Shown: positions 3,422 to 62,321 of the stretch, one piece after another
Position numbering within the stretch: the stretch's first letter is position 1
Layout: each line of letters starts with the position of its first letter
Assembly: GCF_044324875.1 (NCBI RefSeq)
Contig: NZ_CP172185.1
Reading direction: 5' to 3' (one strand)
Origin: Escherichia coli
GTDB lineage: Bacteria > Pseudomonadota > Gammaproteobacteria > Enterobacterales > Enterobacteriaceae
Length of the DNA stretch: 64,000 nucleotides
Notes under the pieces: generated by a model
The model's database searches: none
What the model saw: only the letters and a program-made list of their open reading frames with translations
What the model was told of the DNA's origin: nothing
Position numbers and translations under genes: made by a program

Positions 3422-4906
3422 TCAGTCATTCAGTGGAAATAATTCATTGTTGTAACTGGTGTACTCACCTTCAACGGTAAGCAAACTGCCGTTTTTATCA
3501 AGATGCGCCGCATCGAGTTGTCGAGTCTCATTACGCCGCTTCGCATCACGTACCAGTCCATCGCCTACGTAATAAATATAGTGGTCATCATGAGCAAAGG
3601 TATCTGATAATTGACCATTGGCGTATTTAAACCACGTCCATTGGCCTTTCAGTTCAAAATGCTCAACCGTGTCTTCATCAATAAAATACGTATAGCGATC
3701 GTCATGTGCTAAATAATTTAATGGTGTGCCATCGGGGCTTTTATACCACTGCCATTGCCCATTAATATCAAAAATAGTCACATCATCGCTCGCAATGAAA
3801 TAAACTTTATCCCCTACAATATTAACACCTTCCTGTAATTCTTGTTGCGGGTCTGGTAAATGAATGACCGACAGCGTTTTTTCGACCGCAGAAACATACT
3901 TCACCAGATAGAGCGAATCTTTATATTGCGCCACATTCTCCGTCAGCGGGCGAAAATATTCCGGATCAACATCAGGAATAGTCGCAACCCGGCAGTCATT
4001 AGCACGCCTGGAAGCATCACGCGTCAACCATGTTACTTTATCCCGCTGCAGGTCAAACGTACTCCGACAATTTTTACCGAACGCATAACGTTTCTCCCCG
4101 TCTTTATCGCGATAAATTAGCAGTGAACCGGCTATCCAGCGCACAATATGAAAGGTATCCGGATCGGCGTTGATGGCATCTCCATTCACAAAGACCTGTG
4201 ATTTAGTCCGCCAGATTGTATCCCAGGGTCCCGGATTACTTTTGCTTTGGCAGCTATTGGGGGAAAATAAAATAATTCGTCGGTCCCAGGATTTAACGCC
4301 AAGAATAGAATACCCTTGCGCACTGCCCAACCAGTGCCCCTGAAAGTAAATATTGTGACGATCTTTCAGCACATCCGCGGAATCACCTGAACCGCCGACT
4401 TGTTGCAACGAATCCATATCGACCTGCTTTTCGTCGCGATTATCATCCGTGCGTTCACCATCAAAATAGAGACTATCTTTATCGGCGGCAAAACGCCCCC
4501 ACGCGCGGAATGTTGCAACATCAACTTTCGGTGTTCCCGGCGGGTTCTGGACTATTTTCCCTGCCCATAAAATATGGCGGCCATCGGTTAACCAGTCGAA
4601 ACGCCAGCCGCCATTTGACCGATAGCCAGAGAAGGGAGCCACCCGCACAAAATCATTATTGATATCATCAGGTGAATCGTATTCACCATCAGTGCCGTTG
4701 GGTACGCGGCGAAGTTGTTTGAACTTTACCTGCGGCAAATGAATATCCGGAAAATCGATACCGTAACCGTCACTATCTTCAACGATATATTTTGTGCCTT
4801 GCCCCCACGGCTGGTAGTAAAACGCAGCATAAGGCACGCCGGAGCAGGCTATCGAAGCGGTTGAAAATAAAGCCAGTGCGAGACAAACGGGTTTAATTGG
4901 CAACAT
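3422..4906 (-). CDS. Secreted/lipoprotein-like protein of unknown function, island paralog A (494 aa), repeated DK..Y(F/Y) and W.W aromatic motifs
   Basis: Long uninterrupted ORF; N-terminal hydrophobic signal (MLPIKPVCLALALFSTASIACSG); shares several conserved blocks with the upstream gene (WLTDGR.ILWAGK, FAADK.S.YFDG.RTDDN, HWLGSA.G, VDPEYF); absent from K-12 at this locus as I recall. Confidence 0.7.
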   Translation of the reverse strand: MLPIKPVCLALALFSTASIACSGVPYAAFYYQPWGQGTKYIVEDSDGYGIDFPDIHLPQVKFKQLRRVPNGTDGEYDSPDDINNDFVRVAPFSGYRSNGGWRFDWLTDGRHILWAGKIVQNPPGTPKVDVATFRAWGRFAADKDSLYFDGERTDDNRDEKQVDMDSLQQVGGSGDSADVLKDRHNIYFQGHWLGSAQGYSILGVKSWDRRIILFSPNSCQSKSNPGPWDTIWRTKSQVFVNGDAINADPDTFHIVRWIAGSLLIYRDKDGEKRYAFGKNCRSTFDLQRDKVTWLTRDASRRANDCRVATIPDVDPEYFRPLTENVAQYKDSLYLVKYVSAVEKTLSVIHLPDPQQELQEGVNIVGDKVYFIASDDVTIFDINGQWQWYKSPDGTPLNYLAHDDRYTYFIDEDTVEHFELKGQWTWFKYANGQLSDTFAHDDHYIYYVGDGLVRDAKRRNETRQLDAAHLDKNGSLLTVEGEYTSYNNELFPLND

Positions 4907-4939
4907 AGCATCATCCTGAAGCTGTTAGCGTGTAAGAGG

Positions 4940-6103
4940 TTATTTAAATAAGGGTTTCAGACCGCTCGGGGGTTGCTTCACCGTAGACCATTCTGCTGAA
5001 ATGGGGTTGTAACGCAGCCATTCAGTTTGCTCGTAGTGTTTTCCGTCGATTGTGGTTAATCCACTAAGTTCGTGACTGTAGAGTTGCCCGTCTGTAGTGA
5101 TATACATGTAGCCAGTTACCATGCTTTCCCTATCTAATAATTCAAAAACATCCTCTGGCTTGGGTGTTATCAGTTCACCTTCACCTAATGCATTGGTTTT
5201 AACCTTATAGAATTGATCTTTGTAATAGCCTACCGACCCGGTAAGTAAGGTAAAATATTCCGGATCAACTCCTTTAAGCGTTTCATAAACACAATCACTG
5301 CCCGCAGGCGTCGCTTCTTGTTTGAGCCTGGACACATTCTTCAAACCGATATTAAATAACGCACAACTGTGACCAATATCTTCCAACGTATAGTCATGCT
5401 CGCCGCTTTTATCGCGATAAACTAACCGTTCGCCAGGCATCCAGCGGATTATCTGAAAGGTTTTGCGATCGGCGGGCAGCGGCTTGCCATTAACAATCAC
5501 CTGCGAATTTGTCATTACAACAAATTGCAGGGATGAATCATGCCGCAGGATTTGAAACCCGTCAGCGCTGCCCAACCAGTGCCCCTTATGCCAAAGACTA
5601 TTTTTATCACGCAGTAAATTCCAGATGTCCGTCTCTTCAAGCGTTGACATATCCACCTGCTTATCACCGCTATTATCATCGGTACGCTGGCCGTCAAAAT
5701 AGATACTGCGTTTATCAGCAGCGAAAGCGCCGAATGCCTTAAAACTGGCGGCATCGACATTAGGTTCACCGGATGGATTTTTCAGGACTTTGCCTGCCCA
5801 AAGGACAGAACGTCCATCGGTGAGCCAGGTATGCTGGCAATCCCCCTCGTCATCACAGTCGAACTTATCGGGATTAAAATCGGAGAGCAGCCGGGTTTCT
5901 TGTTTATTGGCTAAATTGGCAATGCGCCAGAGGCGGGAAAAATTAACGTCTGGTAATTCGGAGAGGATCTCATCTTCTTTTCCCTTCTGTTCGGCAACGT
6001 AAACCGTGCCTTTTTCATGCTGGCGGTAATAAAAATCCGCGCCCCAGGAAGGTGAAATGGAGAGAGGTAATGCGGCGATTAATAACCAACTGCGCTTAAC
6101 CAT
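4940..6103 (-). CDS. Secreted protein of unknown function, island paralog B (387 aa from MVKRSWLLIAALPLSISPSWGA)
   Basis: Track ORF 4940..6331; start placed at the internal Met that begins a Sec-type signal peptide; paralogous to 3422..4906; lies 33 bp upstream of it on the same strand (probable two-gene operon). Confidence 0.65.
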   Translation of the reverse strand: MVKRSWLLIAALPLSISPSWGADFYYRQHEKGTVYVAEQKGKEDEILSELPDVNFSRLWRIANLANKQETRLLSDFNPDKFDCDDEGDCQHTWLTDGRSVLWAGKVLKNPSGEPNVDAASFKAFGAFAADKRSIYFDGQRTDDNSGDKQVDMSTLEETDIWNLLRDKNSLWHKGHWLGSADGFQILRHDSSLQFVVMTNSQVIVNGKPLPADRKTFQIIRWMPGERLVYRDKSGEHDYTLEDIGHSCALFNIGLKNVSRLKQEATPAGSDCVYETLKGVDPEYFTLLTGSVGYYKDQFYKVKTNALGEGELITPKPEDVFELLDRESMVTGYMYITTDGQLYSHELSGLTTIDGKHYEQTEWLRYNPISAEWSTVKQPPSGLKPLFK

Positions 6104-9571: not shown

Positions 9572-10768
9572 CTAAATCATTTCGGGGGGTTCCTGCTTCA
9601 ACGAGCGGCCTGACTGCACCATCTCTCCACAGGCAAGAACGGCGTGCCCCGCCGCTAAAATGTTACGAGCGCCATTTACATCGGCGTTCGCTGTATATCC
9701 ACATGCCTGGCATCTGAATTTACTTTGTGACAGGCGATTTTCTTTCGCTGTATGACCACAGCACGCGCAACGCTGGCTTGTGTACGCTGGCGGAACAGCA
9801 AGCACCTGACCGCCACGCCAGAGCTGCTTGTACTCAAGCTGGCGGCGCATTTCATACCAGCCCTGATCCAGTATCGAACGGTTTAAACCTGATTTTGCCC
9901 GGACATTGCGCCCCGGCTGGCTGACCGTACCCGCTGCTGACTTTGACATGTTGCTGACCTTCAAATCCTCAATGACTATCATTGCGTGGTTTTTGCTGAC
10001 GGTCGTTGTGACTTTGTGAAGGTAGTCCCTGCGGATATTTGCGATACAGGAATGCAGTCGCTGTATTTTGCGTTTCTGCTTCTGCCAGTTATTGCTGAAT
10101 TTGACCTTGCGGCTTAACTGTCGCTGAAGTCTCGCCAGCTTCTTCTGGTTTTTCTGAAAACTGTTTACAGGCTCAAAGACTGTGCCATCTGACAGCGTGG
10201 CGAGTTTAGCCACGCCAGCATCCAGCCCGACCATTGATGCTGAAGGGTGAACCGGAGTTGATACTTCATTTTCAGTCTGAATACTGATGTACCACTTACC
10301 GCAGGACTGGCTGACAGTGACATTTTTCACAACACCCGTGACCTGACGGCTATTCCGGTAGCGCATCCAGCCAAGTTTCGGCAGAAAAATACGGCTGTTT
10401 TCCTGATCGAGCTTAACGCCCTGCGGGTAGCGGAATGCATCATTCTGTCCCCGCTTTTTGAATCGGGGAAAAGCAGCCCGCTTCTGGAAGAAGTTTTTGT
10501 AAGCCCGCTCAAGGTCTTTCAGTGACTGTTGCAATGGCTGTGAGGGCGAATCTTTAAGCCATTGCGTTTCAGTGGCGTTTTTCCACTCAACCAGCCAGGA
10601 AGCCATTTTCCCGTAAGGGATGTATTTATTACCGGCCTCATGATTCTCATTCTGACGTGCCAGAGCACGATTGAAAACGAAACGACATGCGCCTGCGAAG
10701 CGCCTCATTTCACGCTCCTGTTGACCACCGGGTCTTAACTGGAATTTAAATGCCTGTAGTCGTTTCAC
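9572..10768 (-). CDS. tnpB: IS200/IS605-family TnpB (OrfB), RuvC-like RNA-guided nuclease family
   Basis: 398 aa; N-terminal [13 protein letters not shown]..., RuvC-I-like IEDLKV, C-terminal zinc finger CACCGH...CQACG and RuvC-III-like DVNGARNI; full length with no internal stops. Confidence 0.9.
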
Positions 10769-10775
10769 AGGCCAA

Positions 10776-11390
10776 ATGATACTTTGGTCTGTGAGAAAAG
10801 AAACCGATATCCGGCGTGGAAGGCATTGTGTTTTCCTGATGCATGTTCACCAGGTCTTTGTCACCAAATACCGACGTCAGATTTTTGACCATGACGCGAC
10901 AGAAAAACTACGCACTTACTTTTCAAATGTATGTGCTGATTTTGAAGCTGAACTGGTTGAAATGGATGGCGAACCAGATCACGTCCATTTGTTAATTAAC
11001 TATCCTCCCAAACTGGCGATATCCAGTCTGGTAAACAGCCTCAAAGGCGTATCGGGTAGGTTACTGCGACGAGATCGACCAGATATTGCAGTCAGGTATT
11101 ACTACAAAGGCGTTTTGTGGAGTCCTGGCTATTTTGCCAGTAGCTGCGGAGGTGCGCCAATATCCGTCATCCGCCAATACATTGAACAACAGCAAACACC
11201 TGATCAGGTGGAAAACCGCGCCTTATATCCCCGCCCTGAAGGACGGGGTTTTACGGCGCACCGGATAAACCAGGCCAAGCGTATGCTGGTTGATCAAATA
11301 ATATCCCCCAAGCGCAGCAATATTAATATTCACCTGCAATGGGTCGATATCTGGCTTAAAAATATTGTGTTTCCTCCCTTCATCCAATAA
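10776..11390 (+). CDS. tnpA: IS200/IS605-family HuH transposase TnpA; ORF reads through the subterminal hairpin, so the functional C-terminus is uncertain
   Basis: HuH motif ([11 protein letters not shown]) and catalytic Tyr region ([22 protein letters not shown]); about 55 extra codons follow and cross the 11229..11248 hairpin. Confidence 0.75.
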
Positions 11391-11483
11391 GGATTCCATT
11401 AACTGCAAGTGCGCATGATTAATTTCTAAGAGACACTGTGATTTTGCATAATGCACACCTTTACTTTGGTTTTCACTATGCAC
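11223..11483 (-). pseudogene. ytfA-like regulator fragment whose 3' end is encoded by IS-end sequence
   Basis: 86-aa ORF at the position where K-12 carries ytfA (as I recall); its last codons overlap the IS hairpin, suggesting the IS inserted into or next to the gene's 3' end. Confidence 0.3.
11229..11248. repeat. IS200/IS605 subterminal hairpin, tnpA-proximal (presumed LE)
   Basis: 5-bp stem CCCCG/CGGGG with the same loop CCCTGAAGGA as the hairpin at 9526..9547. Confidence 0.7.
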
Positions 11484-11832
11484 AATTTTTAAAAACCAGG
11501 GATTAGCAATATAATAATCCCAGGTAAAATCGATGATTTTTTCAATGGCTTTTTGTGGCTGGTTAACCTGCTGATTAACAAACGCACCGATACCGACAGC
11601 GTAGAATAATTACATACCGCACAACAAGAATGTATGGTGTAAGGCGTTGTCAGTCATCTCCCTCCCTGGGTGCATCGTTATATCCGTGATGAGCGATTTT
11701 TGATATTAATATCTTTCACCATCCGCTATTTTCACTACTTCAGAAAACAAACTTATTTTTATTAATATCGATTCTTTTTCTTTGAGCATTTAACTACGAT
11801 ATTTATAAAAAAATTAAACAGGCAAAAATACA

Positions 11833-13741: not shown

Positions 13742-14155
<414 letters not shown>

Positions 14156-14463
14156 TTATTCAGCCTCCTGTCTGGGTCAGCCGAATCCCGGGGAGGCAAG
14201 GAACGTGTTAAAGGTCGGCTGAAAAATGACGCGTTATAGTACTGACATACCCCGCTAAACTCAAGGCCAGCCGACAAATAAATCTCATCTTTCACCAAAT
14301 CGTACTAACACGCTGATTTGAAGTTCATCACACTTCATCATGGTGTTTTTTTGAACAACTGCATCAGAAATGGTCACCATCAACTTCTTTATCATTGATT
14401 AAAATTAAATCAGAAGATCATCACAGAGGAGAGCACACAAAGTCAGCCGTTGAGGAGGTATCT

Positions 14464-23354: not shown

Positions 23355-24980
23355 TTACACACACACTCCCCCCGTCGCCCGCAGCAATAAATCATTCTGG
23401 ATCTGCTCTGACAACCGTACGCCGCCGCGCGTATCTAACATCACCTGACACCACGCCTGCGCCATTGGCGGAGAGGCATATTTCAACATTTGCGCACCGC
23501 AGCCCAGCAGGAATAGCTGATGAGTAATCTCTCGCCCCAGTTCTTCAGCAGGCTTACGCAGCTGCTGCTGTAAACGACGAACCGCGCGATCAAAATAGCG
23601 ATCCTGCCCTTTCACTTCCACAAATGCTTCCGACAATAAGTCGTATACACCCGCTTGCTTATTGAGAACGCGCAGCACATCCAGGCACATAATATTGCCG
23701 GAACCTTCCCAAATACTGTTTACCGGCATCTCCCGGTAAAGCCGCGGCAGCTCGCTCTCCTCGCAATAACCAATGCCGCCCAGCACCTCCATCGCTTCGG
23801 CCACAAACGGCATACCTCGTTTGCAGATCACAAATTTTGCCGCAGGCGTAAATAAACGCGCCCACAGGGCTTCTTTGGCATCGGCACGCCGGTCCCACGC
23901 TCGCGCAAGACGAAACAGCAACGCCGTTTGCCCTTCAAGCTGAAGTGCCATGCGACTTAAGACATGACGCATAAGGGGCTGTTGGATCAATGGATTACCA
24001 AAAACATGGCGTTGATGTGCATGATAAATCGCCAGCGAAAATGCACGGCGCATCATGGCATGGCTACCCAGGGCGCAATCAAAACGCGTCATCCCCCCCA
24101 TTTTCAGGATCAGACGAATTCCTTCCCCTTCCTGCCCCAACAACCAGCCAATGGCATCCTGAAACTCCACTTCGCAGCTGGCGTTAGAGCGATTACCCAG
24201 CTTATCTTTCAGCCGCTCGAGGCGAATCGCGTTGCGTTGCCCGTCAGGCAAAAAGCGCGGCACAAAAAAGCAGGATAAACCGCCCGTAGTCTGCGCCAGC
24301 ACCAGATGCGCATCGCTTTGCGGCACCGAGAAAAACCATTTATGCCCCACCAGCCGATAAGAGCCATCTTCCAGACGCTCTGCGCGGGTGGTGTTGCTCA
24401 TGACATCGGAACCGCCCTGCTTTTCCGTCATTCCCATGCCAATCAACAAACCGCGTTTTTGCCCACCTGGCAATAAGTGAGAATCGTAGCGATCGCTCAA
24501 CAGCGGCGTGGTCCAGTCCTGAAACGGCGCGGGTAACATCTGTAACAGCAATGGCGTGGCGGCAAAGGTCATCGTTATCGGACATAACGACCCTGCCTCA
24601 ACCTGTGCGTGCAACATAAAACGCGCCGCGCGCGCCACAAATGCGCCGGAGCGAGCGTCTTCTTCCCAGGCAAGATTGTGCACCCGATTGGTACATAGCG
24701 CCTGCATCAGCAAGTGCCAGGCGGGGTGAAAACGCACATCGTCCAGATGGCGTCCTTGCGCATCGTAGCGCAATAATTCAGGCGGATTCACATTCGCCAG
24801 CCGCCCCAGTTCAAGGGATTCAGCCGTCCCTAACTGCTGACCAATACTAGCTAGAAAATCGCTATCCCAGCCAGCACCTTCACGCGTTACCGCTTCGCAG
24901 AGCGCGCCATCAGACAGGTATAAGTTGCTGTTATTTAATGGTATAGGTTGATTAAAAACGGTGTGAGTTTGCCAGTGCAC
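23355..24980 (-). CDS. aidB: Adaptive-response acyl-CoA-dehydrogenase-like protein AidB
   Basis: Track ORF is 547 aa from an upstream ATG; K-12 AidB is 541 aa as I recall, which fits a GTG start at the Val of ...TVHWQTHTVFNQ. Confidence 0.9.
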   Translation of the reverse strand: MHWQTHTVFNQPIPLNNSNLYLSDGALCEAVTREGAGWDSDFLASIGQQLGTAESLELGRLANVNPPELLRYDAQGRHLDDVRFHPAWHLLMQALCTNRVHNLAWEEDARSGAFVARAARFMLHAQVEAGSLCPITMTFAATPLLLQMLPAPFQDWTTPLLSDRYDSHLLPGGQKRGLLIGMGMTEKQGGSDVMSNTTRAERLEDGSYRLVGHKWFFSVPQSDAHLVLAQTTGGLSCFFVPRFLPDGQRNAIRLERLKDKLGNRSNASCEVEFQDAIGWLLGQEGEGIRLILKMGGMTRFDCALGSHAMMRRAFSLAIYHAHQRHVFGNPLIQQPLMRHVLSRMALQLEGQTALLFRLARAWDRRADAKEALWARLFTPAAKFVICKRGMPFVAEAMEVLGGIGYCEESELPRLYREMPVNSIWEGSGNIMCLDVLRVLNKQAGVYDLLSEAFVEVKGQDRYFDRAVRRLQQQLRKPAEELGREITHQLFLLGCGAQMLKYASPPMAQAWCQVMLDTRGGVRLSEQIQNDLLLRATGGVCV

Positions 24981-25063
24981 TGTGTCTCCCTCCATCAATG
25001 GCAGTCACCCTTAGTATGGTCACTGCCATGGATTCCTGACAGAAAGAGATTGCTAAAACATTC

Positions 25064-32550: not shown

Positions 32551-32976
32551 TCACTCCACCAGCAATAATTTATAAAGCGGTTGATTCTCTTCAACCAAAT
32601 CGGCAAGCGTGTAGTTATCAAGTTCCGTAAGAAAACTTTGCACGGCCTTAGAAAGCGCCTGTTTCAACCGACAGGCAGGTGTAATGTGGCAAAACTCACT
32701 GCTGCAATTCACCAGCGATAAGGGCTCCAGCTCGCGCACCACATCACCAATACGTATCGCACTCGCCGGTTTACCCAGACGAATGCCGCCATTTTTTCCA
32801 CGAACAGCAGTCACGTAGCCGGCACGACTAAGTTGATTGATTATTTTGACCATATGATTACGGGAGACGCCGTAGACGTCAGTCACTTCAGAAATACTGG
32901 TCATCCGCCCTTCTGGCAATGACGCCATGTAGATCAGCGCACGTAATCCGTAATCAGTGAAACTCGTTAACTGCAC
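32551..32976 (-). CDS. nsrR: Nitric-oxide-sensing Rrf2-family repressor NsrR
   Basis: 141 aa, [49 protein letters not shown]..., three-Cys cluster ligand region. Confidence 0.95.
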
Positions 32977-37213: not shown

Positions 37214-38494
37214 TTAGATCAGGTAATCGATCAACGCCGGTTCTTGTTTACAGAGGCGACGCCAGTCAACGATCGGCATACGAACTTGCAGACTTACGCT
37301 GCCGTCCTCCTCCATCCACTCTTTTTCTATTGCCTGAAGCTGATAAAAACGACTTCTCAGACGCCCTTCCTGCGGTGGCAGACGCAATGTATGCTGCGCC
37401 ACCTCGCCGGAAAGCCGCTCCGTCAAAGCCTGAAAAAGCTGTGGTATCCCCGCTCCGGTCTGTGCGGAAAGCCAGACACGGATCGGTTTGTTCTCTTCGT
37501 CCCGATCAATACGCGGTTCGAAATCTTCCAGCATATCGATCTTGTTCATCACCAGCAGGGTTGGGATCTCGTGAGCGTCGATCTCTTCAAGAACCGTATT
37601 CACCGCTTCGATGTTTTCTTGTACACGTACATCCGCCGCATCAATGACGTGCAGCAGCAATGTGGCTTGCCGCGTCTCTTGTAACGTGGCTTTAAATGCC
37701 GCCACCAGATCGTGCGGCAGGTGGCGAATAAACCCTACGGTATCTGCCAACACGGTTTCACCGACATCCGCGACGTCAATACGCCGCAACGTCGGGTCGA
37801 GGGTGGCAAACAACTGGTCTGCCGCGTAGACCCGCGCTTCGGTGATGCGATTGAAAAGGGTAGATTTACCGGCGTTGGTATATCCCACCAGCGAAACAGT
37901 AGGAACGTCGGCTTTGATACGCGATTGCCGCCCCTGCTCACGCTGCTTTTCAACTCTTTCCAGGCGCGACTGTATCTGCACGATGCGATTACGCAACAAA
38001 CGACGGTCGGTTTCGAGCTGGGTTTCACCCGGACCACGCAAACCTATCCCGCCTTTCTGTCTTTCAAGGTGGGTCCAGCCACGCACCAGGCGCGTAGCCA
38101 GATGGCGCAGCTGCGCCAGCTCAACCTGCAACTTACCCTCATGGGTACGCGCACGTTGGGCGAAAATATCTAAAATAAGGCCGGTGCGGTCGATAACACG
38201 ACACTCGCACAAACGCTCCAGGTTACGCTCTTGCGCCGGGCTCAGGGCATGGTCAAAAAGAACGACCGAAGCACCCGTCGCTTTGACAGCTTCCGCAATT
38301 TCAACTGCTTTACCTTCACCTACAAAATACTTTGGGTGCGGCGCTTTACGGCTACCGGTAATCACCTGCAATGCTTCGACACCGGCGGAAGAGACCAGAG
38401 ATTCAAACTCCTGGAGGTCTTCCATATCTTTGTCTTGCGTAAAATAGATGTGTACCAGTACCGCCTGCTCACCAGCATCATAACGGTCAAACAA
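37214..38494 (-). CDS. hflX: Ribosome-associated GTPase HflX
   Basis: 426 aa, G-domain motifs GYTNAGKST and DTVGF. Confidence 0.96.
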
Positions 38495-46507: not shown

Positions 46508-46583
<76 letters not shown>

Positions 46584-46618
46584 TTGGGTGGTCTGTGCTT
46601 TACAGCACTTTCAAATTT

Positions 46619-46694
<76 letters not shown>

Positions 46695-46851
46695 TTAATC
46701 TTCGTCTTTCGAACCGCTACTGCCTTGGCTGCCTTCACTCACCTTAGTCACTTACTTTTGTAAGCTCCCAAGGATTCGTTCAGTTGCCGCCTTGTCGCAA
46801 TTCGAAATACTGCGATTGGGTGGTCTGTGCTTTGCAGCACTTTTCAAATTT

Positions 46852-46927
<76 letters not shown>

Positions 46928-47683: not shown

Positions 47684-47777
47684 GCTATTTTCCACCCATT
47701 CACAGTGACTATATTGATCCACAATTGCGTGTATCATAGATGTTTTGCCCATCAGGGGCGACCAGGAGTCTGTACGA

Positions 47778-48830
47778 TTGAGTAAAAATAAACTCTCCAA
47801 AGGCCAGCAGCGCCGCGTGAACGCCAATCACCAGCGTCGTCTTAAAACGTCTAAGGAGAAGCCCGACTACGACGACAATCTGTTTGACGAGCCTGATGAA
47901 GGTATCGTCATCAGCCGCTTTGGTATGCACGCTGATGTGGAATCCGCCGATGGCGACGTTCACCGCTGCAATATTCGCCGTACCATCCGTTCACTGGTGA
48001 CCGGCGACCGCGTAGTCTGGCGTCCGGGTAAACCGGCGGCGGAAGGCGTAAATGTCAAAGGGATCGTGGAAGCGGTGCATGAGCGCACCTCGGTGTTGAC
48101 GCGTCCGGATTTCTACGACGGCGTGAAACCTATTGCCGCCAACATCGACCAGATTGTCATTGTCTCCGCCATTTTGCCGGAGCTGTCGCTCAATATTATC
48201 GACCGTTACCTGGTGGCCTGCGAAACCTTGCAGATTGAGCCGATTATTGTGCTCAACAAGATAGACCTGCTGGACGACGAAGGTATGGAGTTCGTCAACG
48301 AGCAGATGGATATCTACCGCAATATCGGTTATCGCGTATTGATGGTTTCCAGCCATACTCAGGATGGGCTGAAACCGCTGGAAGAGGCGTTGACCGGGCG
48401 CATCAGCATTTTTGCCGGGCAGTCTGGCGTCGGTAAATCCAGCCTGCTGAACGCGTTGCTGGGGCTGCAAAAAGAGATCCTGACCAACGATGTCTCTGAC
48501 AACTCGGGTCTCGGTCAGCACACCACGACCGCCGCTCGGCTGTATCACTTCCCGCACGGCGGTGATGTGATTGACTCCCCAGGAGTGCGTGAGTTCGGCC
48601 TCTGGCACCTGGAGCCGGAACAAATCACTCAGGGCTTTGTCGAATTCCATGACTACTTAGGTCTGTGTAAATATCGCGATTGCAAACACGATACCGATCC
48701 GGGCTGCGCTATCCGGGAAGCGGTTGAGGAAGGAAAAATCGCGGAAACCCGTTTCGAAAACTATCACCGTATTCTGGAAAGCATGGCGCAGGTAAAAACG
48801 CGTAAAAACTTTTCTGATACGGATGACTGA
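47778..48830 (+). CDS. rsgA: Ribosome small-subunit-dependent GTPase RsgA (YjeQ)
   Basis: Track ORF 47745..48830; K-12-length 350 aa requires a TTG start at ...ttg agt aaa aat aaa ([13 protein letters not shown]); G motifs GQSGVGKSS. Confidence 0.88.
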
Positions 48831-48926
48831 CAATTAAGCTAACCGTCGTTAGAATCGTCCCCTTTTTTTCAGGATCCGGCATGTAGGCCGGATCAGGAAC
48901 GACAAAACAATGGCCTGGAGGCTACC

Positions 48927-49895
48927 TTGTTAAATTCATTTAAACTTTCGCTACAGTACATTCTGCCGAAACTATGGCTTACTCGCCTGGCGGGTTGGGG
49001 CGCAAGCAAGCGGGCAGGATGGCTGACAAAACTGGTTATCGATCTGTTCGTTAAATACTACAAGGTCGACATGAAAGAGGCGCAAAAGCCGGATACCGCC
49101 AGCTACCGCACCTTTAACGAATTCTTTGTCCGTCCGCTGCGTGACGAAGTACGCCCAATCGATACCGATCCGAATGTACTGGTTATGCCTGCCGATGGCG
49201 TTATCAGCCAGTTGGGTAAAATCGAAGAAGATAAAATCCTGCAAGCCAAAGGCCACAACTACAGCCTCGAAGCCCTGCTGGCAGGCAACTATCTGATGGC
49301 GGACCTGTTCCGCAACGGTACGTTTGTGACCACTTACCTCTCCCCGCGTGACTACCACCGCGTACACATGCCGTGCAACGGTATTCTGCGTGAGATGATC
49401 TACGTGCCAGGCGATCTCTTCTCCGTTAACCATCTCACCGCTCAGAACGTGCCGAATCTGTTTGCCCGTAACGAACGCGTGATCTGCCTGTTCGATACCG
49501 AATTTGGCCCGATGGCGCAGATTCTGGTCGGTGCGACGATTGTAGGCAGCATTGAGACGGTCTGGGCGGGCACCATTACGCCGCCGCGCGAAGGCATCAT
49601 CAAGCGCTGGACCTGGCCTGCCGGGGAAAACGACGGTTCTGTGGCACTGCTGAAAGGCCAGGAAATGGGTCGCTTTAAACTCGGTTCCACCGTTATCAAC
49701 CTGTTTGCACCGGGTAAAGTGAATCTGGTTGAGCAACTGGAAAGCCTGTCTGTTACGAAAATTGGCCAGCCGCTGGCAGTATCTACCGAAACCTTTGTTA
49801 CGCCAGACGCTGAACCCGCCCCGCTTTCTGCTGAAGAGATCGAAGCAGAACACGACGCCAGCCCATTGGTTGACGATAAAAAAGACCAGGTCTAA
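48927..49895 (+). CDS. psd: Phosphatidylserine decarboxylase proenzyme
   Basis: 322 aa with the LGST self-cleavage motif near the C-terminus ([11 protein letters not shown]). Confidence 0.95.
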
Positions 49896-49916: not shown

Positions 49917-52900
49917 GTGCGCCTGATTATCACTTTTCTGATGGCCTGGTGCCTCAGTTGGGGGGCGTACGCCGCGACGGCCCCCGATAGCAAACAAATC
50001 TCACAAGAACTGGAGCAGGCAAAAGCGGCGAAACCCGCGCAACCGGAAGTCGTAGAGGCGCTCCAGTCTGCCTTAAATGCGCTTGAGGAACGGAAAGGTT
50101 CCCTTGAGCGCATCAAGCAATATCAAGAAGTCATTGATAATTATCCGAAACTCTCCGCTACTCTGCGCGCGCAATTAAACAACATGCGTGACGAGCCGCG
50201 CAGCGTGTCACCGGGAATGTCTACCGACGCGCTGAATCAGGAAATTCTCCAGGTCAGCAGCCAGTTGCTGGATAAAAGCCGTCAGGCCCAGCAAGAGCAG
50301 GAACGCGCCCGCGAGATTGCCGATTCGCTGAATCAACTGCCGCAACAGCAAACCGATGCCCGCCGTCAGTTAAATGAAATCGAGCGCCGCCTGGGGACGC
50401 TTACCGGCAATTCCCCGCTCAATCAGGCACAAAATTTCGCGTTGCAGTCTGACTCCGCACGCCTGAAAGCGCTCGTCGATGAACTGGAACTGGCGCAGCT
50501 GTCCGCCAATAACCGCCAGGAATTAGCGCGCTTACGCTCAGAGCTGGCGGAAAAAGAGAGCCAGCAACTGGATGCGTATTTGCAGGCCTTACGTAATCAG
50601 TTGAACAGCCAACGTCAGCTTGAGGCGGAGCGGGCGCTGGAAAGTACCGAATTGCTGGCAGAAAACAGCGCCGATTTGCCGAAAGACATCGTCGCGCAAT
50701 TCAAAATTAACCGCGAACTATCAGCGGCGCTGAATCAACAGGCGCAGCGGATGGATCTCGTTGCCTCGCAACAGCGTCAGGCTGCCAGCCAGACGTTACA
50801 GGTCCGGCAAGCGTTGAATACGCTGCGTGAACAGTCGCAATGGCTGGGATCGTCCAATCTGCTCGGCGAAGCGTTGCGGGCGCAGGTGGCACGGCTGCCG
50901 GAAATGCCAAAACCACAACAGCTTGATACCGAAATGGCGCAGTTGCGTGTGCAACGGTTACGTTATGAGGATCTGCTTAATAAACAGCCGCAGCTACGGC
51001 AAATCCATCAGGCCGACGGTCAGCCGCTGACCGCCGAGCAAAACCGTATTCTGGAAGCACAGCTACGCACTCAGCGTGAGTTGCTGAACTCATTGTTGCA
51101 GGGTGGAGACACGCTACTACTGGAACTGACCAAGCTGAAAGTCTCCAACGGGCAACTGGAGGATGCGCTGAAAGAGGTGAATGAAGCGACGCACCGCTAT
51201 CTGTTCTGGACCTCTGACGTGCGCCCGATGACCATCGCCTGGCCGCTGGAAATCGCCCAGGATCTGCGTCGTCTCATTTCGCTGGACACCTTCAGTCAGT
51301 TGGGCAAAGCCAGTGTGATGATGCTGACCAGTAAAGAGACAATTTTACCGCTGTTTGGCGCGTTGATTCTGGTCGGTTGCAGTATTTACTCACGCCGCTA
51401 TTTCACCCGTTTTCTTGAACGTTCGGCGGCGAAAGTCGGCAAAGTGACTCAGGATCACTTCTGGCTGACGTTACGCACTCTTTTCTGGTCGATTCTCGTC
51501 GCGTCACCGCTACCGGTGCTGTGGATGACGCTGGGTTACGGCTTGCGCGAGGCGTGGCCTTATCCGCTGGCGGTCGCGATTGGTGATGGCGTAACGGCCA
51601 CCGTGCCGCTGCTGTGGGTAGTGATGATTTGCGCCACCTTTGCCCGCCCGAACGGCTTGTTTATCGCTCATTTTGGCTGGCCGCGCGAACGGGTTTCCCG
51701 TGGGATGCGCTACTACCTGATGAGCATCGGGCTTATTGTGCCGCTGATTATGGCGCTGATGATGTTCGATAACCTCGACGACCGTGAATTCTCCGGTTCG
51801 CTGGGACGGCTTTGCTTTATCCTCATTTGCGGTGCGCTGGCGGTGGTCACTCTCAGTCTGAAAAAGGCCGGGATCCCGCTGTATCTCAACAAAGAAGGCA
51901 GCGGTGACAACATTACCAACCATATGCTGTGGAACATGATGATTGGCGCACCGCTGGTTGCCATTCTGGCGTCGGCGGTGGGTTATCTGGCAACGGCGCA
52001 GGCGCTGTTAGCGAGGCTTGAAACCTCGGTTGCCATCTGGTTTTTGCTACTGGTGGTTTATCACGTTATCCGCCGCTGGATGCTGATCCAACGCCGCAGG
52101 CTGGCGTTTGACCGGGCGAAGCATCGCCGGGCAGAGATGTTAGCGCAACGTGCGCGTGGCGAAGAGGAAGCACATCATCACAGTAGCCCGGAAGGGGCAA
52201 TTGAAGTCGATGAAAGCGAAGTCGATCTCGATGCCATCAGTGCGCAGTCCTTGCGGCTGGTGCGCTCAATTTTGATGTTGATCGCCCTGCTTTCGGTCAT
52301 TGTGCTGTGGTCAGAAATCCATTCCGCTTTCGGCTTCCTCGAAAATATTTCGCTGTGGGATGTCACCTCCACGGTACAGGGCGTAGAAAGTCTGGAGCCG
52401 ATTACCCTCGGTGCGGTGCTGATTGCCATTCTGGTGTTTATCATCACCACGCAGCTGGTGCGCAACCTGCCCGCGCTGCTGGAACTGGCGATTTTGCAGC
52501 ACCTGGATTTAACGCCGGGTACAGGTTACGCCATCACCACCATCACCAAATATCTGCTGATGCTGATTGGCGGGCTGGTCGGCTTCTCAATGATTGGTAT
52601 TGAGTGGTCGAAATTGCAGTGGCTGGTCGCCGCGCTCGGTGTTGGTCTCGGTTTTGGTTTGCAGGAAATTTTCGCCAACTTTATCTCTGGCCTGATCATC
52701 CTGTTCGAAAAACCGATTCGCATTGGCGATACGGTAACGATCCGCGATCTTACTGGTAGCGTGACGAAAATTAACACCCGCGCCACCACCATCAGCGACT
52801 GGGACCGTAAAGAGATAATCGTGCCGAACAAGGCGTTTATTACCGAGCAGTTTATCAACTGGTCGCTCTCTGACTCGGTCACGCGCGTGGTGTTGACGAT

Positions 52901-53240
52901 TCCGGCCCCTGCCGATGCCAACAGTGAAGAAGTGACGGAAATCCTGCTCACCGCAGCGCGTCGCTGCTCGCTGGTGATCGACAACCCGGCACCGGAAGTC
53001 TTCCTGGTGGATCTGCAACAGGGGATTCAGATTTTCGAGCTGCGTATTTACGCCGCTGAGATGGGTCACCGTATGCCGCTACGCCATGAGATCCACCAGC
53101 TAATTCTGGCAGGCTTCCATGCCCACGGTATCGATATGCCATTCCCGCCCTTCCAGATGCGTCTGGAAAGCCTGAATGGTAAACAAACGGGGAGAACATT
53201 AACTTCTGCGGGCAAAGGTCGTCAGGCGGGAAGTTTGTAA
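49917..53240 (+). CDS. mscM: Miniconductance mechanosensitive channel MscM (YjeP), MscS family
   Basis: 1107 aa; signal peptide, long periplasmic coiled-coil region, multi-TM region and C-terminal MscS-like domain; GTG start. Confidence 0.93.
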   Translation: MRLIITFLMAWCLSWGAYAATAPDSKQISQELEQAKAAKPAQPEVVEALQSALNALEERKGSLERIKQYQEVIDNYPKLSATLRAQLNNMRDEPRSVSPGMSTDALNQEILQVSSQLLDKSRQAQQEQERAREIADSLNQLPQQQTDARRQLNEIERRLGTLTGNSPLNQAQNFALQSDSARLKALVDELELAQLSANNRQELARLRSELAEKESQQLDAYLQALRNQLNSQRQLEAERALESTELLAENSADLPKDIVAQFKINRELSAALNQQAQRMDLVASQQRQAASQTLQVRQALNTLREQSQWLGSSNLLGEALRAQVARLPEMPKPQQLDTEMAQLRVQRLRYEDLLNKQPQLRQIHQADGQPLTAEQNRILEAQLRTQRELLNSLLQGGDTLLLELTKLKVSNGQLEDALKEVNEATHRYLFWTSDVRPMTIAWPLEIAQDLRRLISLDTFSQLGKASVMMLTSKETILPLFGALILVGCSIYSRRYFTRFLERSAAKVGKVTQDHFWLTLRTLFWSILVASPLPVLWMTLGYGLREAWPYPLAVAIGDGVTATVPLLWVVMICATFARPNGLFIAHFGWPRERVSRGMRYYLMSIGLIVPLIMALMMFDNLDDREFSGSLGRLCFILICGALAVVTLSLKKAGIPLYLNKEGSGDNITNHMLWNMMIGAPLVAILASAVGYLATAQALLARLETSVAIWFLLLVVYHVIRRWMLIQRRRLAFDRAKHRRAEMLAQRARGEEEAHHHSSPEGAIEVDESEVDLDAISAQSLRLVRSILMLIALLSVIVLWSEIHSAFGFLENISLWDVTSTVQGVESLEPITLGAVLIAILVFIITTQLVRNLPALLELAILQHLDLTPGTGYAITTITKYLLMLIGGLVGFSMIGIEWSKLQWLVAALGVGLGFGLQEIFANFISGLIILFEKPIRIGDTVTIRDLTGSVTKINTRATTISDWDRKEIIVPNKAFITEQFINWSLSDSVTRVVLTIPAPADANSEEVTEILLTAARRCSLVIDNPAPEVFLVDLQQGIQIFELRIYAAEMGHRMPLRHEIHQLILAGFHAHGIDMPFPPFQMRLESLNGKQTGRTLTSAGKGRQAGSL

Positions 53241-56572: not shown

Positions 56573-56703
56573 TTCAGACTTATCCATCAGACTATACTGT
56601 TGTACCTATAAAGGAGCAGTGGAATAGCGTTCGCAGACCGTAACTTTCAGGCACTTACCCTGAAGTACGGGGCTGTGGGATAAAAACAATCTGGAGGAAT
56701 GTC

Positions 56704-58504
56704 GTGCAAACCTTTCAAGCCGATCTTGCCATTGTAGGCGCCGGTGGCGCGGGATTACGTGCTGCAATTGCTGCCGCGCAGGCAAATCCAAATGCAAAAA
56801 TCGCACTAATCTCAAAAGTATACCCGATGCGTAGCCATACCGTTGCTGCAGAAGGGGGCTCCGCCGCTGTCGCGCAGGATCATGACAGCTTCGAATATCA
56901 CTTTCACGATACAGTAGCGGGTGGCGACTGGTTGTGTGAGCAGGATGTCGTGGATTATTTCGTCCACCACTGCCCAACCGAAATGACCCAACTGGAACTG
57001 TGGGGGTGCCCATGGAGCCGTCGCCCGGATGGTAGCGTCAACGTACGTCGCTTCGGCGGCATGAAAATCGAGCGTACCTGGTTCGCCGCCGATAAGACCG
57101 GCTTCCATATGCTGCACACGCTGTTCCAGACCTCTCTGCAATTCCCGCAGATCCAGCGTTTTGACGAACATTTCGTGCTGGATATTCTGGTTGATGATGG
57201 TCATGTTCGCGGCCTGGTAGCAATGAACATGATGGAAGGCACGCTGGTGCAGATCCGTGCTAACGCGGTCGTTATGGCTACCGGCGGTGCGGGTCGCGTT
57301 TATCGTTACAACACCAACGGCGGCATCGTTACCGGTGACGGTATGGGTATGGCGCTAAGCCACGGCGTTCCGCTGCGTGACATGGAATTCGTTCAGTATC
57401 ACCCAACCGGTCTGCCAGGTTCCGGTATCCTGATGACCGAAGGCTGCCGCGGTGAAGGCGGTATTCTGGTCAACAAAAATGGCTACCGTTATCTGCAAGA
57501 TTACGGCATGGGCCCGGAAACTCCGCTGGGCGAGCCGAAAAACAAATATATGGAACTGGGTCCACGCGACAAAGTTTCTCAGGCCTTCTGGCACGAATGG
57601 CGTAAAGGCAACACCATCTCCACGCCGCGTGGCGATGTGGTTTATCTCGACCTGCGTCACCTCGGCGAGAAAAAACTGCATGAACGTCTGCCGTTCATCT
57701 GCGAACTGGCGAAAGCGTACGTTGGCGTCGATCCGGTTAAAGAACCGATTCCGGTACGTCCGACCGCACACTACACCATGGGCGGTATCGAAACCGATCA
57801 GAACTGTGAAACCCGCATTAAAGGTCTGTTCGCCGTGGGTGAATGTTCCTCTGTTGGTCTACACGGTGCAAACCGTCTGGGCTCCAACTCCCTGGCGGAA
57901 CTGGTGGTCTTCGGCCGTCTGGCCGGTGAACAAGCGACAGAGCGTGCAGCAACTGCCGGTAATGGCAACGAAGCGGCAATTGAAGCGCAGGCAGCTGGCG
58001 TTGAACAACGTCTGAAAGATCTGGTTAACCAGGATGGCGGCGAAAACTGGGCGAAGATCCGCGACGAAATGGGCCTGGCTATGGAAGAAGGTTGCGGTAT
58101 CTACCGTACGCCGGAACTGATGCAGAAAACCATCGACAAGCTGGCAGAGCTGCAGGAACGCTTCAAGCGCGTGCGCATCACTGACACTTCCAGCGTGTTC
58201 AACACCGACCTGCTCTACACCATTGAACTGGGCCACGGTCTGAACGTTGCTGAATGTATGGCGCACTCCGCAATGGCACGTAAAGAGTCCCGCGGCGCAC
58301 ACCAGCGTCTGGACGAAGGTTGCACCGAGCGTGACGACGTCAACTTCCTCAAACACACCCTCGCCTTCCGCGATGCTGATGGCACGACTCGCCTGGAGTA
58401 CAGCGACGTGAAAATTACTACGCTGCCGCCAGCTAAACGTGTTTACGGTGGCGAAGCGGATGCAGCCGATAAGGCGGAAGCAGCCAATAAGAAGGAGAAG
58501 GCGA

Positions 58505-58512
<8 letters not shown>
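56704..58512 (+). CDS. frdA: Fumarate reductase flavoprotein subunit
   Basis: 602 aa, GTG start, FAD-binding [16 protein letters not shown] and the covalent-FAD His region (SHTVAAEGG). Confidence 0.97.
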
Positions 58513-62147: not shown

Positions 62148-62165
62148 ATCAGGCTCCGGAGAATT

Positions 62166-62210
62166 GGGGCCGTCCCCGGTGAAAAGAGGCGTTTGCAGGT
62201 CGTCCTGCAA
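62166..62210 (-). ncRNA. Guanidine-II riboswitch (mini-ykkC) in the sugE 5' leader
   Basis: On the minus-strand transcript: two short GC hairpins with ACGR tetraloops, ttgcagg-ACGA-cctgcaa and gggg-ACGG-cccc, separated by about 10 nt and ending about 20 nt before the sugE ATG. Confidence 0.8.
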
Positions 62211-62321
62211 AGCTGATGGTTGAACGGATATTTTGCCAGGTGGCAGGGGAATTTCAACTATTACCTTTGTGACTATCGCAAAAAAACAAACGGCACGACA
62301 TAACTGTCGTACCGTTATTGC

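Follow-up and report, generated by a model that had tools for sequence, protein, structure and literature searches.

The window, that is, the whole stretch of 64,000 nucleotides of Escherichia coli DNA that was analysed, showed the gene order of the 94-95 min region of the K-12 chromosome in reverse. The order runs from cpdB through ulaA-G and aidB (minus strand) to rnr, nsrR, purA, hflXKC, hfq, miaA and mutL, and continues with orn (minus strand), rsgA (plus strand), psd and mscM, then frdABCD and ampC, and finally efp. Seven of these genes are described here, and their K-12 counterparts are rsgA (b4161), psd (b4160), mscM (b4159), frdA (b4154), hflX (b4173), nsrR (b4178) and aidB (b4187). 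Upon comparison with K-12 MG1655, the seven genes were identical in start codon, leader sequence and protein length, and the differences amounted to strain-level SNPs only, such as G for T at position 25009 in the leader of aidB. A query of 1.5 kb spanning the rsgA start matched 5,425 of the 5,426 complete genomes of E. coli and was 100% identical to strain 042, whereas the aidB region was 100% identical to strain ST2747; relative to complete genomes, the window is a mosaic. Collinearity of the window with strain 042 was rejected, as 042 has other genes at the aidB position.

To count start codons, the annotation was transferred to all 68 intact coding sequences of the window. We found 59 ATG, five GTG, three TTG and one ATT start, which gives a non-ATG share of 13% (9/68). 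The GTG starts belong to aidB, nsrR (32976, minus strand), mscM, frdA and an IS200/IS605 tnpB gene (10768, minus strand), the TTG starts to hflX (38494, minus strand), rsgA and psd (48927), and the ATT start to one doubtful PGAP 'hypothetical'. The original prediction had listed rsgA, aidB, mscM and frdA as genes with non-ATG starts; the sequence, the K-12 annotation and the PGAP annotation placed all four starts exactly where it had put them, but the list omitted psd, hflX and nsrR. As evident from the comparison with curated orthologues, starts and lengths agreed with the K-12 MG1655 and PGAP records. In the K-12 record (NC_000913.3), rsgA, psd and hflX start with TTG, whereas frdA, mscM, nsrR and aidB start with GTG, and the protein lengths are equal to those found here. 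PGAP annotates identical starts in strains 042, ST2747 and KK05-19, one Keio strain and two divergent E. coli. The four non-ATG starts of the original prediction are already known and curated, and initiation at GUG and UUG is textbook knowledge. The RefSeq versions (NP_418585.4 for rsgA and NP_418608.6 for aidB, with frdA, mscM, psd, hflX and nsrR all at.1) are consistent, as far as version numbers go, with an earlier revision of the rsgA and aidB starts by curators.

The number of non-ATG starts in the window is ordinary and lies at the genome-wide background. Published values for this background are approximately 12% (PMC9825163) and 17%, the latter from ATG, GTG and TTG shares of 83, 14 and 3% (10.1101/063800). 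At these backgrounds, the binomial probability of at least nine non-ATG starts was 0.43-0.84, and that of at least three TTG starts was 0.16-0.57. We also considered the three neighbours rsgA, psd and mscM, which are adjacent on the same strand and all have weak start codons, each conserved across the family; this arrangement could reflect something particular to the region, for instance an operon whose genes are jointly down-tuned in translation. At background, however, a run of at least three adjacent non-ATG genes among the 68, as in rsgA-psd-mscM, has a probability of 0.10-0.24, the total of nine lies at background as well, the rsgA stop is separated from the psd start by 96 nt, and more distant relatives show a mixture of ATG, GTG and TTG for rsgA and psd. 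A special regional property is very unlikely on this evidence, and enrichment of non-ATG starts in the window was rejected by the binomial and run tests.

The rsgA gene begins with TTG at 47778-47780 on the plus strand, both in the sequence and in the K-12 and PGAP annotations, and this codon is followed by AGT AAA AAT AAA CTC (SKNKL). The coding sequence extends over 47778-48830 and specifies 350 residues according to the annotation and to alignment with PDB chains. A Shine-Dalgarno (SD) core, AGGAG, is located at 47764-47768 (plus strand), where it was invariant in 69 distinct sequences; it lies 9 nt before the TTG, and 8 nt remain between the paired stretch CAGGAGU and the TTG. The calculated anti-SD duplex for this start was -6.9 kcal/mol, compared with +0.1 kcal/mol for an upstream TTG at 47745, -3.2 kcal/mol for a GTG at codon 14 and -2.1 kcal/mol for an ATG at codon 50.

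For comparison across species, we used 80 Enterobacteriaceae rsgA loci with up to 10 kb of flanking sequence, taken from a scan of species-representative genomes. In 80/80 loci, TTG was aligned with the start codon of E. coli. Among the 69 distinct sequences, the mean column entropies at the first, second and third positions of codons 2-19 were 0.04, 0.03 and 0.72, while those of the 11 triplets upstream of the TTG were 0.34, 0.41 and 0.33. Variation confined to the third position begins at codon 2, so that the TTG marks the exact onset of triplet periodicity. Upstream of it, the triplets either showed non-synonymous changes (ATG/ACG/AGG, CCA/TCA and GCA/GTA/GCG) or were invariant at all three positions. 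The original prediction of a TTG start at 47778 with a 350-residue product is thus in agreement with the sequence, the annotation, the SD, the substitution pattern and the relatives.

An in-frame TTG at 47745-47747 (plus strand) opens the longest reading frame of 361 codons, and translation from this codon would add 11 residues to the protein. The codon is in frame and invariant in all 69 distinct sequences, and no stop codon intervenes between it and 47778 in 79 of 80 species. In Trabulsiella guamensis, however, an in-frame TAA occupies codon -2, between the two TTG codons. The upstream TTG also lacks an SD, as its duplex energy indicates, and the 11 triplets that follow it are without third-position bias, a pattern expected of a nucleic-acid element. 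In particular, this TTG forms the first three nucleotides of the stem of a leader hairpin at 47745-47761 (plus strand), in which UUGCCC and GGGCGA enclose a variable loop of 5 nt and all six pairs are kept in 25/25 species. In addition, the ATG of distant rsgA relatives is positioned at the site homologous to 47778 and not further upstream. A start at 47745 is accordingly exceedingly improbable; we judged this codon to be a non-start, and its invariance is attributed to the conserved leader hairpin or to a promoter element. No covariation was seen in the hairpin, the stem being invariant in the 25 species, an Rfam search of the leader gave no match, and the whole leader did not fold better than its shuffles (z = -0.5). 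A promoter scan of the orn-rsgA spacer returned only one weak match, on the minus strand, so that any placement of transcription starts is tentative.

The start at 47778 was also compared with an internal alternative and with distant relatives. Codon 14 is GTG in approximately half of the sequences and GTA, GTT or another valine codon in the rest; a start at this codon, which would give a 337-residue RsgA, was dismissed because the codon is not conserved as GTG and has a weaker SD duplex. Among RsgA representatives with 41-73% identity, the basic motif M-[STAG]-K-[KRN]-K-L-[ST] at the N-terminus is retained. At the position homologous to 47778, the start was GTG in a relative at 73% identity and ATG in five relatives at 45-56% identity. 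The conserved motif and the starts at the homologous position in distant relatives indicate that the position of the rsgA start is ancient and that TTG is the Enterobacteriaceae state of this codon. The RsgA of the window aligned over residues 1-350 with the 350-residue E. coli RsgA chains 2YKR, 7BOI and 7NAR with few substitutions, and D/G and E/A replacements were present relative to the K-12 sequence in the PDB; these chains, like the other PDB chains compared below, are recombinant constructs that follow the annotation and are not independent proof of the starts. Its sequence identity to characterised RsgA, including the basic N-terminal segment, assigns the protein to the circularly permuted GTPase RsgA/YjeQ, and the N-terminal motif K[KR]KL[ST]..Q is retained in relatives down to approximately 41% identity.

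The GTG starts that had been proposed for mscM at 49917 and for frdA at 56704 were found in the sequence and in both the K-12 and PGAP annotations. The mscM start codon (49917-49919, plus strand) is followed by RLIITFLMAW and opens a coding sequence of 1107 residues (49917-53240, plus strand), in accordance with the annotation and with the 1113-residue MscM chain of PDB entry 11sm, which aligns over residues 1-1107. GTG occupied this position in 80/80 species, most of which have in-frame stop codons 3-15 codons before it. Conservation collapsed upstream of the mscM start, with entropies of 1.54, 1.54 and 1.44 at the three codon positions compared with 0.32, 0.23 and 0.42 after it, and the anti-SD duplex was -5.6 kcal/mol. 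The frdA start codon (56704-56706, plus strand), which is present in the sequence and the annotation, was GTG in 66/66 species. Its SD, GGAGG at 56693-56697 (plus strand), is marked by a near-invariant CTGGAGGAATGTC block and gave a duplex of -9.3 kcal/mol with a 5-nt gap. The frdA coding sequence (56704-58512, plus strand) specifies 602 residues according to the annotation, and the 602-residue FrdA chains of 1KF6 and 1L0V align over residues 1-602. As in rsgA and psd, variation among Enterobacteriaceae shifts to the third codon position from codon 2 of frdA.

The three genes that the original list lacked have similar features. The psd start is a TTG at 48927-48929 (plus strand) in the K-12 and PGAP annotations, and the aligned codon was TTG in 77/80 species and GTG in 3/80. 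Its SD, GGAGG at 48917-48921, gave a duplex of -9.3 kcal/mol, and the Psd beta chain in the PDB begins at residue 1. The hflX start in the K-12 annotation is a TTG at 38492-38494 (minus strand), which was conserved in all 34 species whose locus reaches the start, with an SD duplex of -6.3 kcal/mol. The K-12 annotation places the nsrR start at a GTG at 32974-32976 (minus strand); the SD, UGAGGUU, showed a duplex of -6.3 kcal/mol in the E. coli sequence, the only one used for this gene.

The aidB gene lies on the minus strand and starts with GTG at 24980-24978, followed by HWQTHTVFNQP. Its coding sequence (23355-24980) specifies 541 residues according to the annotation, and the 541-residue AidB chains of 3DJL and 3U33 align over residues 1-541. 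The SD, GGAGGGAG at 24986-24993 (minus strand), was invariant across six genera or species; its duplex, 7 nt away from the GTG, was -9.8 kcal/mol. We aligned the leader sequences of E. coli, Salmonella, three Citrobacter species and one sewage contig, and found that the block GCCATTGA-N-GGAGGGAGACAC was invariant. The variable N makes an ATG in E. coli, and AAG or ACG in the other sequences. In all five non-E. coli sequences, the codon aligned to the E. coli GTG is ATG, and similarity in the coding region of the orthologues starts at this GTG/ATG column. The ATG at the aligned column in every non-E. coli sequence identifies 24980 as the homologous aidB start, and the predicted GTG start at 24980 with a 541-residue product is consistent with the sequence, the annotation, the SD and the orthologue alignment. 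We infer from the five ATG sequences that the GTG is probably a recent change from ATG in the E. coli lineage, and E. coli appears to have gained a decoy ATG inside its own aidB SD.

Two in-frame codons, TTG (24998) and ATG (24995), are positioned just upstream of the aidB start (24993-24998, minus strand), and the GTG might then be merely an internal valine codon of a protein with 547 or 546 residues, respectively. The ATG, five codons before the GTG, is a stronger start codon, and an AAGGG in this strain is found 11 nt before the ATG and 8 nt before the TTG, although its duplex is weak at -4.9 kcal/mol. This AAGGG reads AATGG in K-12 and in two divergent E. coli, however, and in Salmonella, Citrobacter and the sewage relative the codon aligned to the decoy ATG is AAG or ACG and that aligned to the E. 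coli GTG is ATG. Moreover, the decoy ATG overlaps the invariant SD, whose spacing suits the GTG. A conserved CATACT box agrees with a published account in which the first base of the aidB -10 element is C (PMC3141248). This box would set the 5' end of the transcript approximately 26 nt before the GTG, so that the weak SD-like match would probably fall upstream of the transcription start and the decoys would have no space for an SD before them. The K-12 curators also chose the GTG, and the protein accession stands at version 6, which is consistent with a revision although it does not prove one. A start at either decoy is highly improbable on these grounds; minor initiation at the decoy codons may occur in this strain, in which the G at 25009 creates the AAGGG.

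Taken together, the starts of the seven genes had SD duplexes of -5.6 to -9.8 kcal/mol with gaps of 3-8 nt overall and of 5-8 nt in rsgA, aidB, mscM and frdA, compared with +0.6 to -4.9 kcal/mol for the alternatives. In the four genes of the original prediction (rsgA, aidB, mscM and frdA), the SD was present about 4-8 nt upstream, and the alternative starts were weak or without an SD. The substitution-pattern test was performed with 62-81 Enterobacteriaceae sequences, and the entropy calculation used 63-74 distinct sequences. No in-frame ATG is present upstream of the starts of rsgA, psd, mscM, frdA, hflX and nsrR, and the first downstream ATG in these genes lies 8-49 codons in. With regard to experimental start-site data, the INRI-seq table of alternative initiation sites in vitro, which was complete, had no entry for rsgA, aidB, frdA, mscM or psd and listed an in-frame ATG at +69 in hflX. 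Names, accessions and N-terminal peptides of these genes were absent from the TRAINSPOTTER supplements, and a literature search for explicit statements on the rsgA TTG, aidB GTG and frdA GTG starts found nothing relevant.

An SD located 4-9 nt upstream of a start codon positions the 30S subunit, and fMet-tRNA decodes UUG and GUG as Met. The seven genes are very probably ordinary annotated genes whose translation begins at UUG (rsgA, psd and hflX) or GUG (aidB, mscM, frdA and nsrR), and ribosomes presumably initiate at these codons in vivo, as judged from the sequence comparisons. The SD upstream of each UUG or GUG codon would position the 30S subunit, and the initiator fMet-tRNA would read the codon with a first-position mismatch, so that the product would still begin with Met, while the initiation rate would be below that of AUG. 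The codons before these starts, TTG in rsgA and both TTG and ATG in aidB, would then belong to non-coding leaders and be in frame by chance. UUG and GUG reporters reached 10-100% of AUG efficiency and gave an N-terminal Met (10.1101/063800), and start-codon discrimination is governed by IF3 (10.1101/063800; PMC7145577).

The original prediction also held that naive gene callers would give these genes wrong lengths, and the reading frames of the window bear this out, as an ATG-only rule mis-sizes all seven. It further attributed the over-extension of aidB and rsgA to ATG-first calling. Both genes were over-extended in the mechanical list of reading frames compiled for this analysis (547 residues for aidB and 361 for rsgA, both beginning at an upstream TTG), but the cause was the longest-ORF rule acting at these upstream TTG codons. 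The longest-ORF rule over-extended 29 of the 68 genes, 27 of which are ATG genes. A strict ATG-first rule over-extended 12 genes, including aidB, and truncated the other eight non-ATG genes. In particular, the ATG-only rule extended aidB to 546 residues, from the in-frame ATG at 24995, and removed 49 codons from rsgA, 41 from frdA, 8 from mscM, 48 from psd, 23 from hflX and 16 from nsrR. In frdA, an ATG first appears at codon 42, past the GAGGAG FAD/dinucleotide-binding motif at residues 12-17. In mscM, it first appears at codon 9, and a start at this codon would be predicted to deprive the signal peptide of its charged n-region.

A concrete case of such an error was found in the Salmonella Typhimurium RsgA orthologue YjeQ (PDB 2RCN, 358 residues), in which residues 9-358 align with residues 1-350 of the E. 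coli protein; the Salmonella construct has eight extra N-terminal residues compared with E. coli RsgA. An in-frame ATG is present at codon -8 in 25 of the 69 distinct Enterobacteriaceae rsgA sequences, where E. coli has AGG, and the eight extra residues correspond to this ATG, which makes the construct an instance of ATG-first over-extension. The relevance of the non-ATG starts accordingly lies in annotation quality, as longest-ORF and ATG-only models give wrong N-termini in this region: five or six residues too many in aidB, 11 too many or 49 too few in rsgA, 41 too few in frdA with loss of the FAD-binding motif, and eight too few in mscM with loss of the n-region. As the 358-residue Salmonella crystal construct illustrates, errors of this kind reach experiments.

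To assess selection on the identity of the start codons, we counted invariant four-fold sites in codon alignments of Enterobacteriaceae. Only 1 of 78 such sites was invariant in rsgA, 1 of 93 in psd, 3 of 41 in mscM and 1 of 121 in frdA, while the start codon was invariant in rsgA (81 sequences), mscM (76) and frdA (62) and showed one change in psd. The ATG-start genes in these loci were equally stable in their start codons. Invariant starts amid saturated four-fold sites indicate that the identity of a start codon, whether weak or strong, is under purifying selection at the family level. This implies that the weak codon is likely to be held by selection in Enterobacteriaceae for rsgA, mscM and frdA; the codon of hflX is likewise held, and that of psd very nearly so. 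The selective reason would presumably be tuning of the expression level, and the family-wide invariance of the weak codons gives a small hint of such tuning through start-codon strength.

Net selection towards AUG has been described among prokaryotic start codons (Belinky, Rogozin and Koonin 2017, PMC5622118). Our results resemble the pattern of Belinky et al. (PMC5622118) in that sub-optimal starts go together with strong SDs (GGAGG in psd, frdA and aidB) and in that aidB shows a lineage-specific ATG/GTG difference. They differ a little from that study (PMC5622118) in that the weak codon of rsgA, mscM and frdA never changed to AUG in the 62-81 sequences, which suggests that selection in particular genes favours the weak codon or a signal that overlaps it, a pattern that is not new in kind.

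The infC gene, which encodes IF3, starts with AUU, and IF3-dependent discrimination at this codon has been established experimentally. Like infC, rsgA and hflX, which encode GTPases of ribosome quality control, are genes of the translation apparatus with a conserved sub-optimal start codon. In contrast to the infC codon, which is listed as a confirmed start (10.1101/063800), the UUG codons of rsgA and hflX are known here from their conservation. Initiation at UUG is strongly dependent on IF3 and on 30S fidelity. By analogy, these codons might act as sensors of IF3 or of 30S fidelity, with infC-like feedback on ribosome maturation and rescue. The AUG starts of distant rsgA orthologues weaken this reading, for which conservation is the support at hand: the rsgA UUG is conserved within Enterobacteriaceae and is no universal requirement. 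We regard the sensor role as quite unlikely. If it existed, a build-up of immature, error-prone 30S subunits or titration of IF3 would relax start-codon discrimination, and the relaxed discrimination would raise the synthesis of RsgA and HflX. The invariant 5' hairpin located beside the rsgA SD could join that control.

The longest open reading frame of rsgA begins at TTG 47745, upstream of the TTG at 47778 that yields the 350-aa product. This upstream TTG was found to be the first three bases of a leader hairpin stem (UUGCCC / GGGCGA; 47745-47761, plus strand), and the hairpin lies directly 5' of the rsgA Shine-Dalgarno sequence. The 6-bp stem was invariant, while the 5-nt loop was fully variable. 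The hairpin had no match in Rfam, and its invariant stem offers no covariation. Adjoining it, the invariant sequence GTGTATCATAGA (47729-47740) carries TATCAT on one of its strands and TATGAT on the opposite one; for the divergent promoters of rsgA and orn, these two motifs may serve as overlapping -10 boxes.

The crystallised chain of Salmonella YjeQ (PDB 2RCN) contains 358 residues, which corresponds to E. coli RsgA with eight additional N-terminal residues. Comparison with window positions 47754-47780 revealed that these eight residues match an in-frame ATG at rsgA codon -8. This codon is ATG in 25 of the 69 Enterobacteriaceae sequences and AGG in E. coli. The N-terminal extension of 2RCN is probably an annotation over-extension that was carried into the structure.

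The E. coli aidB gene combines a GTG start with a decoy in-frame ATG located within its own Shine-Dalgarno sequence (24993-24998, minus strand). In contrast, aidB of Salmonella and Citrobacter has an ATG start, with AAG or ACG at the position of the E. coli decoy ATG. Upstream of the aidB decoys, a G at 25009 produces AAGGG; among the four E. coli strains compared, it was present only in the window strain.

In the window, psd starts with TTG (48927-48929, plus strand), hflX with TTG (38492-38494, minus strand) and nsrR with GTG (32974-32976, minus strand); these three non-ATG starts agree with the curated K-12 annotation and were missing from the original prediction. The psd and hflX starts were conserved across the Enterobacteriaceae. 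The divergent order of orn and rsgA-psd was retained in gammaproteobacterial relatives down to approximately 47% RsgA identity (distant rsgA loci L096-L101), and the psd starts in the four distant loci examined were TTG, GTG, ATG and TTG, so that psd was non-ATG in three of the four. Among the alternative sites listed by INRI-seq, an in-vitro mapping of initiation sites, are two in-frame ATGs, one at position +69 nt of hflX and one 6 nt before ulaG (Supplementary Table S3; PMC9825163). Both ATGs exist in the window, at codon 24 of hflX (~38425, minus strand) and codon -2 of ulaG (19624, plus strand).

An IS200/IS605 remnant (9572-11510, minus strand) comprises a tnpB gene with a GTG start (10768) and a truncated tnpA. 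Neighbouring these genes is a 95-aa PGAP 'hypothetical protein' (11223-11510, minus strand) with an annotated ATT start, which looks like a doubtful gene call. Compared with any single complete genome, the window is a mosaic: it was 100% identical to strain 042 at rsgA and to ST2747 at aidB, and 042 carries different genes at the aidB position. Two accessory genes between ytfE and cycA (3422-6103, minus strand), encoding a 494-aa hypothetical protein and a 387-aa DKNYY-domain protein, were found in KK05-19 and were absent from ST2747. Rfam matches at gathering score, all on the minus strand, were the RpsF leader upstream of rpsF (14135-14219), three tRNA-Gly genes (46511-46927) and, ahead of sugE, a guanidine-II (mini-ykkC) riboswitch (62165-62211).
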